From a virus (lineage: Duplodnaviria; Heunggongvirae; Uroviricota; Caudoviricetes): a DNA stretch of 23,468 nucleotides. This document shows positions 1 through 23,468 of the stretch, in pieces. The DNA lies in IMG/VR virus record IMGVR_UViG_2606217174_000011. One strand, 5' to 3'. Under the pieces are notes generated by a model that was given only the letters and a program-made list of their open reading frames with translations, made no database searches and was not told where the DNA came from. How positions within the stretch are numbered: position 1 is the stretch's first letter; every line of letters starts with the position of its first letter. The translations under genes were made by a program, and so were the position numbers.

Positions 1-660
1 GTGGAAGTTATTGGCACTCGCGGCGCAATGACCATACGCGTTACTACGCCGAGCACGTCCAGCGGTGGCGGAATTACTAACGCTCAATTCACTTATATTA
101 ATCATGGTGATGCTTACGCTCCTGGCTGGCGACGAGACTACAACACGAAAAACCAGCAGCCTGCATTTGCTTTAGGGCAAACAGGACGCAGGGTCGCAAA
201 TGATAAAGCTGTTGGCTGGAACTGGAATAGCGGTGTTTATGATGCAGATATCAGTGGTGCATCGACATTAATCCTCCACTTCAATATGAATGCGGGGAGT
301 TGCCCTGCTGTACAGTTCCGCGTGAATTACAGGAACGGCGGTATTTTTTATCGTTCAGCGCGTGATGGTTATGGCTTTGAAGCTAACTGGTCAGAGTTTT
401 ACACCACAACACGCAAACCCTCTGCGGGGGATGTTGGTGCATATACGCAGGCAGAATGTAACTCAAGGTTTATTACAGGTATTCGCCTTGGCGGTCTGTC
501 ATCTGTTCAGACATGGAAAGGCCCCGGCTGGTCTGACAGGTCAGGTTATGTCGTTACGGGTTCAGTTAACGGAAACCGTGATGAATTAATTGATACAACT
601 CAGGCAAGGCCAATTCAGTATTGCATTAATGGGACGTGGTATAACGCGGGGAGTATTTAA
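1..660 (+). CDS. Alternative side tail fibre C-terminal (receptor-binding) segment, 5' end cut by the window edge; not fused to an stf constant part in this orientation
   Basis: ORF is open to position 1 (219 codons, no upstream stop). Its C-terminus RPIQYCINGTWYN parallels the end of the minus-strand stf (RPIQKYINGTWYN). It is followed 2 nt later by a tfa-family gene, the same stf-tfa coupling seen on the other strand. Confidence 0.65.
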   Translation: MEVIGTRGAMTIRVTTPSTSSGGGITNAQFTYINHGDAYAPGWRRDYNTKNQQPAFALGQTGRRVANDKAVGWNWNSGVYDADISGASTLILHFNMNAGSCPAVQFRVNYRNGGIFYRSARDGYGFEANWSEFYTTTRKPSAGDVGAYTQAECNSRFITGIRLGGLSSVQTWKGPGWSDRSGYVVTGSVNGNRDELIDTTQARPIQYCINGTWYNAGSI

Positions 661-662
661 CG

Positions 663-1196
663 ATGATGCACTTAAAAAACATTACTGCTGGCAACCCTAA
701 AACAAAAGAGCAATACCAGCTAACAAAGCAATTTAACATCAAATGGCTTTATTCAGATGATGGAAAAAACTGGTATGAGGAACAAAAGAATTTCCAGCCA
801 GACACTTTGAAAATGGTCTATGACCATAACGGCGTTATTATTTGTATTGAAAAGGATGTTTCAGCAATTAATCCAGAGGGTGCAAGCGTCGTTGAATTAC
901 CTGATATTACAGCAAATCGCCGGGCTGATATTTCGGGGAAATGGATGTTCAAAGATGGCGTAGTGATAAAGCGAACTTATACCGAGGAAGAGCAGAGGCA
1001 ACAAGCGGAAAATGAAAAGCAAAGCCTGTTGCAACTTGTCAGGGATAAAACCCAGCTATGGGACTCACAGCTACGGCTGGGCATCATTTCCGACGAGAAT
1101 AAACAAAAATTAACCGAGTGGATGCTCTATGCGCAGAAAGTCGAATCTACAGACACTTCCGGCCTGCCAGTAACGTTTCCCGAACAACCAGAATGA
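663..1196 (+). CDS. tfa: Tail fibre assembly protein (Tfa family), second inverted copy
   Basis: 177 aa; the N-terminus [25 protein letters not shown]...[14 protein letters not shown] closely parallels the minus-strand Tfa at 1225..1752; ATG 2 nt after the stf' stop. Confidence 0.85.
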   Translation: MMHLKNITAGNPKTKEQYQLTKQFNIKWLYSDDGKNWYEEQKNFQPDTLKMVYDHNGVIICIEKDVSAINPEGASVVELPDITANRRADISGKWMFKDGVVIKRTYTEEEQRQQAENEKQSLLQLVRDKTQLWDSQLRLGIISDENKQKLTEWMLYAQKVESTDTSGLPVTFPEQPE

Positions 1197-1224
1197 GAGA
1201 AGGCCCGCTATCGGGCCTTAATTT
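1197..1224. terminator. Hairpin between the two convergent tfa genes, putative bidirectional terminator
   Basis: AGGCCCG-ctat-CGGGCCT stem-loop at about 1201..1217, followed by TAATTTTT on the plus strand; it sits in the 28-bp gap between two convergent stop codons. Confidence 0.45.
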
Positions 1225-1752
1225 TTACTCTGGTTTTTGTGGCCATTCAGGATTTGCCGTATCCACACGGCTGGCCAGAACACTGTAGCGTTCCCATGCT
1301 TCCAGTCGTGTGCGTTCCTCGTCTGTTGCCATATTCAGCCTGACAGCGCGTTCCAGCGGTTGGATGACTGATTCAGCTTCGGAAAGCAATGCGGCCTTTT
1401 GTGATTCGGCCTGTTGTTGTTGCTCGTCTGCCGTATAAATCCGTTTAACCACAGCTCCGTCCCTAAACATCCACTTACCGGAATCATCAGCGCAGCGGTT
1501 GGCTGTAATATCTGGAACCTCAACGACGCTATAACCTTCAGGGTTAAGCGTGGAGGCATCTTTGGTGATGGCGACAATAATATTATTTGCATCGTAAACA
1601 ATCTTTATTGTGTCTGGCTGAAAGTTTTTCACTTCCTCATACCAGTTTTTTCCGTCTTCGGACCATAACCAGATAACATCAAAATTCTTTGTTAGCTGAT
1701 ATTGTTCTTTTGTTTTTGGATTTCCAGACTTAATATTTTTTAAATGCTGCAT
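1225..1752 (-). CDS. tfa: Tail fibre assembly protein (Tfa)
   Basis: 175 aa, [24 protein letters not shown]...; ATG lies 3 nt downstream of the stf stop (TAAtttATG), typical stf-tfa coupling. Confidence 0.85.
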
Positions 1753-1755
1753 AAA

Positions 1756-4635
1756 TTACACCTGTACGACGTTATACCATGTGCCATTGATGTATTTTTG
1801 TATTGGTCTGAATACTGCCGGATCATCGCCATCAACTGCACCGATAATGCCAAGCCCCGTAATTGCATGACCTGATTTCTCATACATCACGCCTTTTTGC
1901 ATAGTCTGAACAACACGTGTACCAAGTCGGACATCTCTCACATAACGTGAGTCAAAATTACCATAATTGCCGGGAATAACTTGCGCACCGCAAAGCCAGT
2001 TGCCATTGTTGTCCATGTATGCCTGACCATCGGTGCCATTGGCTGTCCTTGAGTTATTAATCATGTAGATGCCAAATTGCTTATTCCCCAGTCCACCAAT
2101 CATAAATTTGCGATCAGCGTGGTCCTGACGAAGTAATGCCTGCGCACCATCGGTGGATACCGCATTGCGTCCCAAAATAACATTCTGGTCACGCATATGA
2201 ATCCACATGCCGGTACTACTGTTAATTGCAAAACGGTTTGCAAATATATCCCCTGTAACATCAAGACCATGCCCCATGCTTATCCGACCAGTTCTGAGAT
2301 TAAGCGTAAAGGGGCGTAGTGGCCCTATACCACCATTTTCTCCCTCATTCTCTCGTGTAGGGATGATATGCAGGCATTCTTCAGAACGACGAAAAATAGC
2401 ACCAAAAGATGAATTAAATATCCTCAGTGCATTGACTGTCGATATTTTTACTTCACTGCTGAAAAGGGCTTTAACAAGGACAGACAAAGCATCCCATTTA
2501 AGAGTCATCAGGTCTTTTGTTGTGGTGCTCTGGCGGCTTCTCCATTTGAAATATTCATTGCCGTTGTCGCCTGTTTCAAACCACATGTATGAATCAGTGT
2601 CGCTGTCGGCATTATTTTTAAAACCAATCTTTGCCCAGTCAGTATTTCTAATCCAGGCAAGGATTGAGTCGTTTTCAAAAGTAAGCCCACCGGACAAGGT
2701 ATCGCCATTCTTTTGCACGGCGTTCCTGGCCCTGTTTACCGTTTCCTGTAAACCGAGGTATTCGATAACGGCAGCAACGGTCGATTTCGCAAGAATATCC
2801 CGCCCGACTTTTGTCAGGGTTGCCAGGCTGGCGACATCATTCCCCGTAAAATACGGAAACCTGTCTGCCGCAGTAGCAAGCCCGGCCAGCGCCGTCAGGG
2901 TGGCATCTTTCGGTTGCTTACCCGCAAGCGCGTTAGTCATGGTGGTCGCAAAATTCGGGTCGTTGCCCAGCGCCGCCGCTAACTCGTTCAGCGTATTCAG
3001 TGCGTCAGGCGACGAGTCTACAAGGGCGGCAATCGCGGCCATCACATAAGCCGTACTTGCGATCTGAGTATTATTAGTACCTTTTGGCGCAGTTGGCGTT
3101 GTTGGCGTTCCGGTCAGTGCAGGACTATTTAAGGGCGCTTTCTTGTTCGTTTCATCCATTACCGCCTTAACCGCTTTTGGTGTCGCAGCCAGCGTTTCAG
3201 ACGGGCTGTTAGTGGCGCTACTGAGCTGAACCACACCTTTTTTCGTCGTACTCGCATCTTCCAGAGATACGGCATCAGCAATATCCTCTGCCCGTTTTGC
3301 CGCTGTTTCGGCACGCGTTGCCGCGGATTCAGCAGCAACTTTGCTCTGAGATGCAGCCGTCGCACTGCCTGCCGCCTCTGATGCTTTCGTTGTTGCTGTC
3401 GTGGCACTACCTTTCGCTGCTGACGCTTGTCTGGTCGCCTCATCTTTTGAAGCAGACGCAGATGATGTCGATGACGCCGCTGAACCAGCGGACGATGCGG
3501 CTGCCGCCTTAGAGGAAGCAGCATTGTCTGCTGAAGTCTTTGCATTTGTTTCAGAGGTTTTTGCTGCAGAAGCAGACCTCGCTGCTGCAGTGGCTTGCTC
3601 AGTGGCTTCGCCAGCCTTCGTTGTGGCTGTTGAAGCGGATGATGCGGCGCTTTCTGCCGATTTTCCGGCAGCGGTGGCACTGGCTGAGGCCTGCCCGGCA
3701 CTTGTTGACGCAGCACTGGCAGACGACGCAGCCGCTGTTTTTGAACCTGCCGCAGCTGAGGCGCTCTGTCCCGCTGCTGTTTCAGAAGACTTAGCGTTCG
3801 TCTCGGACGTTTTTGCCGCCTTCGCGGAATTTCCTGCCGCTGTTGCCGAGGAAGCTGCGCTACTGGCGCTCGAGGATGCGTTCGTTTCTGATGATTTTGC
3901 CGCCTCTTTTGAAGCCGCCGCATCCCGGGCTGAGGTGGCAGCTTCTGACGCTTTCGTAGTCGCGGTGGATGCAGAAGTGGCTGCTGATTGTTGTGACGCT
4001 GCAGCATTCGTTTCTGACGTTTTCGCGGCACTGGCACTGGTAGCTGCCGCGCTTTTTGAGGACTCTGCAGCGGCAGCACTTTTTGATGCTTCAGTGGCCT
4101 TTGTTGATGCCGTTCCTGCGCTGGAAGTCGCTGACTGAGCCGACGACGCGGCCTGTCCGGCTGACGTGCTGGCTGCGCGTGCTGAGCCTGCAGCATCAGT
4201 CGCATGGGTTGCCGCCTCACGGGCTGATGTGCTGGCATCACTGGCTGACTTCTTTGCGGCTGCCGTGTTCTGTGCCACCACGGACGCGTTACGCGCCACC
4301 TCTTCCACCATCAGCTCAAAACGGCGCAGTGCCTCCGGACGGGCATCATCCTCCGTCATGGCACCGAGAAAATCATTCAGCGTACCGGGTCGGGAATCTT
4401 CATACACTGTGATGGTCCCGGCATGTGACGGCGGGAATCCTTCCACCAACAGAATAACGCTGTACTGACCGTACTCAACGTCCATACTGTAACGCCCGGC
4501 TTCATCCGGATTTTCTGAGGCCAGCGTGTTCACCACCACCGTGGTACTGTTACGTTTTGCTTTCAGCTGGATTGTGCAGTTCTGTACCGGTTTTCCTGTG
4601 CCGTCTTTCAGTACACCTGAAATCTTTACTGCCAT
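1756..4635 (-). CDS. stf: Side tail fibre protein (Stf), full length, about 959 aa
   Basis: Track ORF 1756..4641; the likely true start is the ATG giving MAVKISGVLKDGTGKPVQN..., which matches the recalled lambda Stf N-terminus. Long Ala/Ser/Thr-rich repetitive central region and a C-terminal domain ending ...INGTWYNVVQV. Confidence 0.85.
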   Translation of the reverse strand: MAVKISGVLKDGTGKPVQNCTIQLKAKRNSTTVVVNTLASENPDEAGRYSMDVEYGQYSVILLVEGFPPSHAGTITVYEDSRPGTLNDFLGAMTEDDARPEALRRFELMVEEVARNASVVAQNTAAAKKSASDASTSAREAATHATDAAGSARAASTSAGQAASSAQSATSSAGTASTKATEASKSAAAAESSKSAAATSASAAKTSETNAAASQQSAATSASTATTKASEAATSARDAAASKEAAKSSETNASSSASSAASSATAAGNSAKAAKTSETNAKSSETAAGQSASAAAGSKTAAASSASAASTSAGQASASATAAGKSAESAASSASTATTKAGEATEQATAAARSASAAKTSETNAKTSADNAASSKAAAASSAGSAASSTSSASASKDEATRQASAAKGSATTATTKASEAAGSATAASQSKVAAESAATRAETAAKRAEDIADAVSLEDASTTKKGVVQLSSATNSPSETLAATPKAVKAVMDETNKKAPLNSPALTGTPTTPTAPKGTNNTQIASTAYVMAAIAALVDSSPDALNTLNELAAALGNDPNFATTMTNALAGKQPKDATLTALAGLATAADRFPYFTGNDVASLATLTKVGRDILAKSTVAAVIEYLGLQETVNRARNAVQKNGDTLSGGLTFENDSILAWIRNTDWAKIGFKNNADSDTDSYMWFETGDNGNEYFKWRSRQSTTTKDLMTLKWDALSVLVKALFSSEVKISTVNALRIFNSSFGAIFRRSEECLHIIPTRENEGENGGIGPLRPFTLNLRTGRISMGHGLDVTGDIFANRFAINSSTGMWIHMRDQNVILGRNAVSTDGAQALLRQDHADRKFMIGGLGNKQFGIYMINNSRTANGTDGQAYMDNNGNWLCGAQVIPGNYGNFDSRYVRDVRLGTRVVQTMQKGVMYEKSGHAITGLGIIGAVDGDDPAVFRPIQKYINGTWYNVVQV
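2743..2768. other. Gin/Pin/Hin-family (DNA invertase) crossover site inside stf, gix/pix-like
   Basis: Plus strand reads TTCCTGTAAACCGAGGTATTCGATAA, about 23 of 26 matches to the Mu gix sequence as recalled (TTCCTGTAAACCGAGGTTTTGGATAA). Imperfect dyad around a central GA, and it encodes ...IEYLGLQE... at the stf constant/variable boundary. Confidence 0.6.
3150..4250. repeat. Low-complexity Ala/Ser/Thr-rich repetitive coding region within stf
   Basis: Protein shows reiterated motifs such as KTSETNA, SSASSAASS and TATTKASEA; the DNA is GC-rich and repetitive, producing long spurious ORFs in other frames on both strands. Confidence 0.6.
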
Positions 4636-4642
4636 ATTCACC

Positions 4643-4673
4643 CCACAAAAAAGCCCGCCTGAACCGGCGGGCT
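4643..4673 (-). terminator. Rho-independent terminator downstream of lom
   Basis: Minus strand reads AGCCCGCC-ggttca-GGCGGGCT followed by TTTTTTGTGG, between the lom stop (4700) and the stf start. Confidence 0.6.
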
Positions 4674-19903: not shown

Positions 19904-22158
<2,255 letters not shown>

Positions 22159-22181
22159 CATAAGCGCTAACTTAAGGGTTG
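22159..22181. repeat. IS186 left terminal inverted repeat
   Basis: CATAAGCGCTAACTTAAGGGTTG located immediately at the break in the A reading frame. Confidence 0.7.
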
Positions 22182-22213
22182 TGGTATTACGCCTGATATG
22201 ATTTAACGTGCCG

Positions 22214-23326
22214 ATGAATTACTCTCACGATAACTGGTCAGCAATTCTGGCCCATATTGGTAAGCCCGAAGAACTGGATACTTCGGCACGTAATGCCGGG
22301 GCTCTAACCCGCCGCCGCGAAATTCGTGATGCTGCAACTCTGCTACGTCTGGGGCTGGCTTACGGCCCCGGGGGGATGTCATTACGTGAAGTCACTGCAT
22401 GGGCTCAGCTCCATGACGTTGCAACATTATCTGACGTGGCTCTCCTGAAGCGGCTGCGGAATGCCGCCGACTGGTTTGGCATACTTGCCGCACAAACACT
22501 TGCTGTACGCGCCGCAGTTACGGGTTGTACAAGCGGAAAGAGATTGCGTCTTGTCGATGGAACAGCAATCAGTGCGCCCGGGGGCGGCAGCGCTGAATGG
22601 CGACTACATATGGGATATGATCCTCATACCTGTCAGTTCACTGATTTTGAGCTAACCGACAGCAGAGACGCTGAACGGCTGGACCGATTTGCGCAAACGG
22701 CAGACGAGATACGCATTGCTGACCGGGGATTCGGTTCGCGTCCCGAATGTATCCGCTCACTTGCTTTTGGAGAAGCTGATTATATCGTCCGGGTTCACTG
22801 GCGAGGATTGCGCTGGTTAACTGCAGAAGGAATGCGCTTTGACATGATGGGTTTTCTGCGCGGGCTGGATTGCGGTAAGAACGGTGAAACCACTGTAATG
22901 ATAGGCAATTCAGGTAATAAAAAAGCCGGAGCTCCCTTTCCGGCACGTCTCATTGCCGTATCACTTCCTCCCGAAAAAGCATTAATCAGTAAAACCCGAC
23001 TGCTCAGCGAGAATCGTCGAAAAGGACGAGTAGTTCAGGCGGAAACGCTGGAAGCAGCGGGCCATGTGCTATTGCTAACATCATTACCGGAAGATGAATA
23101 TTCAGCAGAGCAAGTGGCTGATTGTTACCGTCTGCGATGGCAAATTGAACTGGCTTTTAAGCGGCTCAAAAGTTTGCTGCACCTGGATGCTTTGCGTGCA
23201 AAGGAACCTGAACTCGCGAAAGCGTGGATATTTGCTAATCTACTCGCCGCATTTTTAATTGACGACATAATCCAGCCATCGCTGGATTTCCCCCCCAGAA
23301 GTGCCGGATCCGAAAAGAAGAACTAA
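22214..23326 (+). CDS. insL: IS186 / IS4-family DDE transposase
   Basis: Track ORF 22208..23326 starts at GTG; the ATG two codons in gives MNYSHDNWSAILAHIGKPEELDTSARNAG..., 370 aa, recognised from memory as the IS186 transposase. Confidence 0.8.
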   Translation: MNYSHDNWSAILAHIGKPEELDTSARNAGALTRRREIRDAATLLRLGLAYGPGGMSLREVTAWAQLHDVATLSDVALLKRLRNAADWFGILAAQTLAVRAAVTGCTSGKRLRLVDGTAISAPGGGSAEWRLHMGYDPHTCQFTDFELTDSRDAERLDRFAQTADEIRIADRGFGSRPECIRSLAFGEADYIVRVHWRGLRWLTAEGMRFDMMGFLRGLDCGKNGETTVMIGNSGNKKAGAPFPARLIAVSLPPEKALISKTRLLSENRRKGRVVQAETLEAAGHVLLLTSLPEDEYSAEQVADCYRLRWQIELAFKRLKSLLHLDALRAKEPELAKAWIFANLLAAFLIDDIIQPSLDFPPRSAGSEKKN

Positions 23327-23468
23327 CTCGTTGTGGAGAATAACAAAAATGGTCATCTGGAGCTTACAGGTGGCCATTCGTGGGACAGTATCCCTGACAG
23401 CCTACAAAACGCAATTGAAGAACGCGAGGCATCGTCTTAACGAGGCACCGAGGCGTCGCATTCTTCAG

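Follow-up and report, generated by a model that had tools for sequence, protein, structure and literature searches.

Known Invertible Tail-Fibre Systems

Invertible tail-fibre segments are textbook host-range switches, and finding one is in itself ordinary; the case described here has an unusual architecture. It concerns the side tail fibre gene stf of a lambda-like Escherichia coli prophage, contained in a 23,468-nt stretch of DNA from a tailed virus (IMG/VR record IMGVR_UViG_2606217174_000011; this whole stretch is called the window below). As read from the sequence, the locus has the cassette layout of the Mu G and P1 C segments, i.e., a constant part and two alternative C-termini with their own chaperones in convergent arrangement, but it lacks the adjacent invertase gene, which is one defining feature of a complete Gin-type system. 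We consider it probable that this is a Mu/P2-type G segment which, having no invertase of its own, is flipped in trans.

The G segment of Mu is likewise ~3.06 kb long and has the same layout. Its crossover sites are identical to the present ones at 24 of 26 positions, its S'v, U', and U proteins show 93–97% identity, and the first 112 nt of gin are identical to those of the invertase gene stump found here. The present segment differs from that of Mu in residing in a lambda-like siphovirus prophage behind a lambdoid Stf constant part, in an Sv that is only 70% identical to Mu S, in a gin gene cut to 64 codons, and in a TAA that stands in frame in the outer half-site of the partner. The closest sequence relative is Escherichia phage P88 (P2-like, Xuanwuvirus), with the same sites, gene order, and orientation, although its invertase is intact (195 aa) and its fibre N-terminus is that of a myovirus. 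The S/U cassettes of the C segment of P1 and P7, which is served by Cin, are homologous to those of the window (89–92.5% nucleotide identity over ~3 kb), but the homology is limited to the segment interior (query 433–3451), and the cix/cin-type sites and the invertase are unmatched. Invertible fibre ends are also known in P2-like prophages (PMC4272514), and they are present in the P2-like prophages L010 and L011.

Similar arrangements exist in lambdoid elements. The P segment of e14 with its invertase PinE is an invertible tail-fibre segment in a defective lambdoid E. coli prophage, found in both orientations among sequenced genomes; unlike the present element, e14 has kept its own invertase, its segment is only 1.8 kb long, and its sites differ at 8–10 of 26 positions. 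The e14 P segment is inverted in trans by PinQ of the Qin prophage, a precedent for the invertase of one prophage flipping the segment of another (PMC12529663). The lambdoid phage LLS has an invertase and opposed fibre genes, its lambda-type tail module carrying an invertible stf end (PMC12315714). A lambdoid prophage at dusA in E. coli E47 (L023 2446–6700) contains the same variable cassettes as the window at 85.5% nucleotide identity. Both LLS and the E47 prophage differ from the present element in having an intact invertase, of 187 aa in E47, and the crossover sites of the latter are not gix-like, none being found within 7 mismatches. Since E47 combines the same cassettes with other sites and another invertase, cassettes and recombination machinery have been exchanged independently.

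A gix-Type Invertible Segment in stf

The segment and the genes involved in it are listed below by window position; negative numbers lie to the left of the window edge.

1..2756, no strand: part of the invertible segment inside the window (whole segment 3,055 bp, window -298 to 2756)
2743..2768, no strand: gix-type 26-bp crossover site inside stf, TTCCTGTAAACC GA GGTATTCGATAA, with the central dinucleotide at 2755–2756
1756..4641, minus strand: stf (side tail fibre), 961 codons from GTG 4641; a probable ATG start at 4635 gives 959 aa
2769–4641, minus strand: constant part of stf, the expressed variable part (Sv) being 1756–2742
2757..3242, minus strand: P88/P2-type portion of the stf constant part; right junction of the graft at ~3164–3242
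1225..1752, minus strand: tfa (U-type), chaperone of the expressed Sv; Pfam Caudo_TAP; protein 96.6% identical to P88 tfa and 93% to Mu U
1200..1219, plus strand: GC-rich, terminator-like hairpin and T run between the convergent tfa genes, AAGGCCCGCTATCGGGCCTT AATTTTTACT, by consensus match only
663..1196, plus strand: tfa' (U'-type), chaperone of the silent cassette; Pfam Caudo_TAP; protein 98.9% identical to P88 and 97% to Mu U'
1..660, plus strand: silent S'v, alternative Stf C-terminal domain; startless open frame; protein 96.6% identical to Mu S'

The 26-bp site at 2743–2768, TTCCTGTAAACCGAGGTATTCGATAA, is the sole match in the window at ≤3 mismatches, and there were no matches to it across 100 shuffled sequences. 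Both annotated boundaries of the Mu G segment (NC_000929) read TTCCTGTAAACCGAGGTTTTGGATAA. The window 26-mer is identical to Mu gixL/gixR at 24 of 26 positions and to the site in the P88 tail fibre gene at all 26. A scan of e14 for the site at ≤6 mismatches gave none; the e14 (Pin) sites appear only at 8–10 mismatches, i.e., with 16–18 of 26 positions identical. The site is therefore specifically of the gix type. The generic label "Pin-type" was considered and is ruled out by the 8–10 differences from the e14 sites.

Within stf the site is in frame on the minus strand, encoding IEYLGLQE at residues 626–633, and 328 codons remain after this motif. The corresponding boundary in Mu S lies ~336 codons before the C-terminus according to the Mu annotation. 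The breakpoints of two inversions between natural genomes, ES6/ES1 and E1433/E8, map within the 2743–2768 site. By these alignments, the window 26-mer is a genuine Gin-type DNA-inversion site, namely the stf-proximal gix site of a Mu/P2-type G segment. In lambda (L012), residues 57–65 of orf-314 read VLEYLGAGE (CTTGAATACCTTGGGGCCGGTGAG), and they occupy the position in lambda Stf that is homologous to the site-encoded IEYLGLQE. This stretch looks like a decayed relative of the crossover site in a phage without an inversion system.

The left flank, beyond the window edge, was read in 12 close relatives (L001–L007 and L015–L019). All 12 contain a partner site, TTCCTGTAAACCGAGGTTTTAGATAA, in inverted orientation (L001 7690–7715, equivalent to window -310..-285), and no second site was found within the window itself, including 1..660. 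The two inverted sites have the GA/TC core in common, are identical to each other and to Mu gix at 24 of 26 positions, and, together with their inner flanks, share a perfect run of 25 nt and 39/43 identity. The two 26-bp sites of P88 are letter-identical to the window site and the partner site.

Between the sites lie two convergent cassettes, Sv-tfa and S'v-tfa', and the nucleotide identity of the whole segment is 89.5–95% to the Mu G segment and 93.8% to P88. The S'v frame extends 302 nt beyond the left window edge as far as the partner site, the outer half of which reads ATC TAA AAC in the fibre frame (CAA in Mu in place of TAA; P88 has the same TAA), and this TAA closes the silent frame exactly at the site. 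When the segment is inverted in silico at the central dinucleotides, the constant part continues in frame into S'v, giving an uninterrupted Stf of 947 aa, as against 961 aa in the window orientation, followed by tfa'. Flipped genomes annotate the 947-aa Stf as one complete coding sequence. In the window orientation, the G(+)-like Sv and the U-type tfa would be expressed, and S'v and U', which correspond to the Mu G(-) state, would be silent.

A preliminary description of the window, made from the sequence alone, had anticipated much of this. It reported the 26-mer at exactly this position as a near copy of an invertase crossover site, in frame in stf as IEYLGLQE some 329 codons from the C-terminus (328 by our count) and at the boundary between constant and variable fibre parts; it recognized the inverted tfa'-stf' cassette at 1..1196, expected a partner site just left of the window with none in 1..660, and predicted that inversion would swap the Stf C-terminal domain together with its Tfa chaperone. 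All of these points agree with the results above.

The Invertase Gene Stump and the Putative Enhancer Region

The invertase gene next to the partner site comprises only 64 codons, VLIGYVRVSTNDQ...VVWKLD. Its product matches Gin at 60 of 63 residues and PinE at 49 of 63, and covers positions 2–73 of the 145 in Pfam Resolvase. Codon 65 is TGA. It is followed by ~40 nt of pinE-like sequence, after which the frame enters the C-terminal end of a lambda-type Tfa; this tfa fragment has 94.7% nucleotide identity to the 3' end of lambda tfa and 92.5% to K-12 tfaR. The stump keeps the catalytic serine but has lost the E helix, the DNA-binding domain, and the greater part of the catalytic domain, and hence it cannot be an invertase. 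No full-length invertase gene was found between the partner site and the chromosomal ybhB/bioA genes, and the stop after 64 codons and the fusion to tfa were seen in 12/12 relatives. As the cis invertase gene is reduced to an N-terminal remnant, the switch is not self-contained.

This remnant is all that occupies the place just left of the window where an invertase gene of ~190 aa had been predicted. The earlier interpretation as a whole thus holds for the site, its partner, the in-frame swap, and the occurrence of both orientations (see below), fails for the invertase, and missed the grafting of the cassette from a Mu/P88-type source.

Over its first 112 nt the stump does not differ from Mu gin, and over 195 nt it differs at 8 positions. 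The stimulating site of Mu was reportedly placed by Kahmann and colleagues in 1985 "within the invertase gene," and the counterpart of the Mu enhancer would fall within nucleotides 1–112 of the stump. Two 15-mers of the form G-N13-C have their midpoints 95.5 and 144.5 bp away from the point of crossover. Their placement fits the layout of the hin enhancer, which is situated ~100 bp from hixL and contains two Fis sites 47 bp apart (PMC3798978).

Orientation of the Segment in Natural E. coli

Both orientations are present in sequenced E. coli. In a comparison of assemblies with symmetric 4.7-kb queries, the segment lies as in the window in 30 complete genomes and is flipped in 38. Nine complete E. 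coli genomes match the first 4.7 kb of the window with 99.7–100% identity, five more assemblies with 1–7 mismatches to the window were reached through an exact look-up of the Stf protein, and the predicted flipped junction is found with 100% identity over 1,400 nt in at least 16 genomes among the matches listed.

Pairs of closely related prophages allow the inversions to be placed in time. After inversion in silico at the two sites, ES6 matches ES1 over 12,644 nt except at 9 positions, none of them within the segment. For the enterotoxigenic E. coli (ETEC) strains E1433 and E8, a direct flip test shows the inversion to be the only difference over ~10.2 kb. PSS-16 (flipped) is nearest to BS15R-A (unflipped), with 2 differences in the segment, compared with 5 to ES1 (flipped). 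The same truncation joint of the invertase gene is present in ES6, ES1, E1433, E8, PSS-16, and BS15R-A, and it occurs in three chromosomal contexts, i.e., at bioA/ybhB, at a Rac-like site, and at potB. Since the three contexts have the identical joint in common, the truncation predates the diversification of these prophages; and since the same stump accompanies both orientations in three sub-lineages, with 0–2 differences in the segment, inversion has recurred after the loss of the invertase. On this population evidence, the inversions are younger than the truncation and comprise at least three events.

The Rac-like context was observed in 1217KP (L003), where the gene order is ompN-uspF-ydfK-pinR. 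The potB context was seen in the ETEC strains E1433 and E8 (L024/L025); the segment of the potB version is 3,133 bp long and contains a variant Sv.

Probable Inversion in Trans and Its Alternatives

A serine invertase of the Gin/Pin group, with Fis bound to the enhancer, would cut both sites at the central GA/TC and rotate the segment, and the rotation would join the constant 625 residues of Stf to either receptor-binding C-terminus, each with its own chaperone. In this scheme the element has retained the two sites and, with the 5' end of gin, the enhancer, but makes no invertase. Flipping would then occur only when another Gin/Pin-type invertase is in the cell, supplied by e14 or by a Rac-/Qin-type, P2-like, Mu-like, or P1-like element; without such an enzyme, the segment would stay frozen in its present orientation. 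We infer that catalysis takes place in trans, that Fis and the enhancer take part, and that receptor binding changes as a consequence; most likely, the inversions since the loss of the invertase were driven by Gin/Pin-type invertases of other prophages.

Cross-action of this kind has been described for several enzymes of the group in addition to PinQ: PinE flips both the G segment of Mu and the H segment of Salmonella, and the Fels-2 enzyme Fin is active at hix (PMC12529663). Candidate donors exist among the carriers. ES1 has an intact invertase of 188 aa in a P2-like prophage 110 kb from the cassette, and in 1217KP an intact pinR is situated 0.4 kb from the stump. At least one further chromosomal gin/pin-like sequence was detected in 36 of the 60 carriers listed, and in 1,097 of 5,426 E. 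coli genomes Mu gix plus gin is matched over nearly its full length.

Several observations weigh against inversion in trans as a general account. At the sensitivity of blastn, 24 of the 60 carriers listed contain no other chromosomal gin/pin-like sequence; among them are PSS-13, whose segment has the window orientation, and ET76, 13C1065T, and L6-21, whose segments are flipped, and in such carriers the segment is probably frozen as it arrived. PSS-13 is the closest proxy, and a search for a trans-acting invertase there found no second chromosomal gin/pin-like place and, in the first 100 kb of its 166-kb plasmid, Tn3-type resolvases only. The donor invertases named above are those of the carriers. 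The orientation data compare assemblies rather than switching inside one culture, and the products of recombination cannot separate site-specific from homologous exchange because the sites have a 25-nt identical run in common. Survival of the enhancer in the stump is deduced from sequence identity, and Fis binding to it is putative. Finally, in the prophage copy that the window represents, the switch may be without effect on host range.

It could be supposed that the sites and cassettes are relics which nothing inverts at present, the orientation polymorphism being older than the loss of the invertase. The destroyed invertase gene, the 24 carriers with no other gin/pin-like sequence, and an IS421 insertion in the terminase gene of the window's prophage are in keeping with this possibility, which we nevertheless regard as unlikely. 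The same joint accompanies both orientations in three sub-lineages and three chromosomal contexts, with 0–2 substitutions in 3.1 kb, and an older polymorphism would require that the identical joint arose or was transferred repeatedly. Moreover, no damage is seen in the sites, the enhancer region, or either reading frame. For an individual invertase-free genome, a "currently frozen" state is likely, and it is compatible with inversion in trans.

Recombination dependent on RecA between the short inverted repeats, rather than a serine invertase, would fit the lack of an invertase in cis. The perfect run of 25 nt and the 39/43 identity of the repeats are in keeping with it, and both orientations are seen in genomes where no other invertase-like sequence was detected. 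A repeat of 25 nt is, however, at the lower limit for RecA-dependent exchange, and at this length three or more independent events among near-identical prophages are unexpected. This route also leaves aside the exact gix-type sites with matching central dinucleotides, the adjoining conserved enhancer region, and the fact that cross-acting invertases are common in E. coli, and we give it little credence. That the switch is complete in itself, with a working invertase of ~190 aa encoded immediately beyond the left window edge, can practically be dismissed: a partner site and the beginning of an invertase gene do occur precisely where predicted, but in 12/12 relatives the gene ends after 64 codons in a fusion to a tfa fragment, and no full-length gene lies between the site and ybhB/bioA.

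Origin of the Cassette

One continuous alignment of 3,816 nt, at 93.8% identity, connects L001 7445–11242 (window -555 to 3242) with P88. It spans the invertase gene up to codon ~64, both sites, the whole segment, and ~480 bp of the constant part of the P88 fibre gene H; the match to Mu has 89.5–95% identity. To the right of window position ~3167, stf is lambdoid (92% identical to K-12 stfR and 87% to lambda), and isolated lambdoid phages align to the window only from 3164–3176 onward. The cassette thus derives from a P88/Mu-like myovirus and forms a patch in a lambdoid stf.

According to these alignments, the patch of ~3.8 kb took the place of the distal part of the lambdoid stf and of the greater part of its tfa. 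On the right, the junction falls within sequence common to both fibre families; on the left, the patch ends within the invertase gene in an illegitimate joint. A single patch event would account for the truncation as well: it would have brought only the first ~64–77 codons of the invertase gene, now stopped and fused to the 3' end of the old tfa.

The Stf Protein and Its Annotation

In Stf, the Pfam domains phage_tail_N and Gp34_trimer cover residues 3–136 and 669–779, respectively. Residues 1–499 are 93% identical to K-12 StfR and residues 1–286 are 87% identical to lambda orf-401, whereas residues 445–623 are 89% identical to P88 H, and the Sv protein shares 91% identity with P88 H and 70% with Mu S. 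The gene order is J-lom-stf; the position after J and lom and the phage_tail_N domain identify stf as lambda-type.

The NCBI annotation of PSS-13 and ES6 splits the uninterrupted stf (L001 9756–12635) into a "pseudo" N-terminal piece and a hypothetical protein, and the silent cassette is entered there as a hypothetical or tail fibre protein with an internal ATG as its start. Such split and internal-start annotations are artefacts typical of invertible fibre genes. Between lom and the start of stf, on the minus strand at window 4652–4673, there is a strong terminator-like hairpin, AGCCCGCCGGTTCAGGCGGGCT, with a T run. Late antitermination or a separate promoter is therefore presumably required for stf to be expressed.

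The Window's Prophage Copy and Its Flanks

Among complete E. coli genomes and phage records, none matches the whole window; the matches end at 22158, where IS421 begins. Two features lie at this end.

21685–22161, minus strand: remnant of the terminase large-subunit gene, the C-terminal 158 codons only, interrupted by IS421
22147–23468: IS421, an insertion sequence of the IS4 family, with its transposase open reading frame at 22208–23326; 99.8% identical to the copy on plasmid pPSS-13_1

The terminase large-subunit gene of ES6 is intact, with 641 codons. Given IS421 in this gene, the source prophage of the window is probably unable to package DNA.

In the relatives at the lambda attachment site (attλ), a diguanylate cyclase gene, ybhB, and bioA follow beyond the tfa fragment. 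The diguanylate cyclase gene is AT-rich, encodes a MASE4+GGDEF protein, and is located at the prophage end, ~0.8–2.1 kb to the left of the window (L001 5904–7235); it looks like a cargo gene. Seven of the nine differences between ES6 and ES1 fall at L002 1331–2906, i.e., in this gene and the sequence just upstream of it.

Implications

A literature search found no description of an invertase-less or orphan G-type segment in a lambdoid prophage fibre gene. The combination reported here, in which a G-type segment in such a gene has lost its invertase, has kept its sites and enhancer region, and has continued to invert, was not found described there. Whether the segment works as an orphan host-range switch, with the receptor tip of the side fibre set by the invertases of unrelated co-resident elements in a cross-prophage control circuit, is in our view evenly balanced; the recurrent inversions after the truncation suggest that such a circuit is in use. 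By analogy with the precedent of PinQ and StfE2, one may speculate that, in defective copies such as that of the window, alternative forms of Stf might have a role at the cell surface directed against other phages.

These observations also carry a warning for annotation, as stubs called "recombinase family protein" and split "pseudo" tail fibre genes can, at loci of this type, mark working switches. If the flips are driven in trans, the locus would be a concrete and common case, with more than 60 complete genomes, of the recently shown cross-talk of prophage invertases, and the host range of one temperate phage would depend on the prophages with which it shares the cell.

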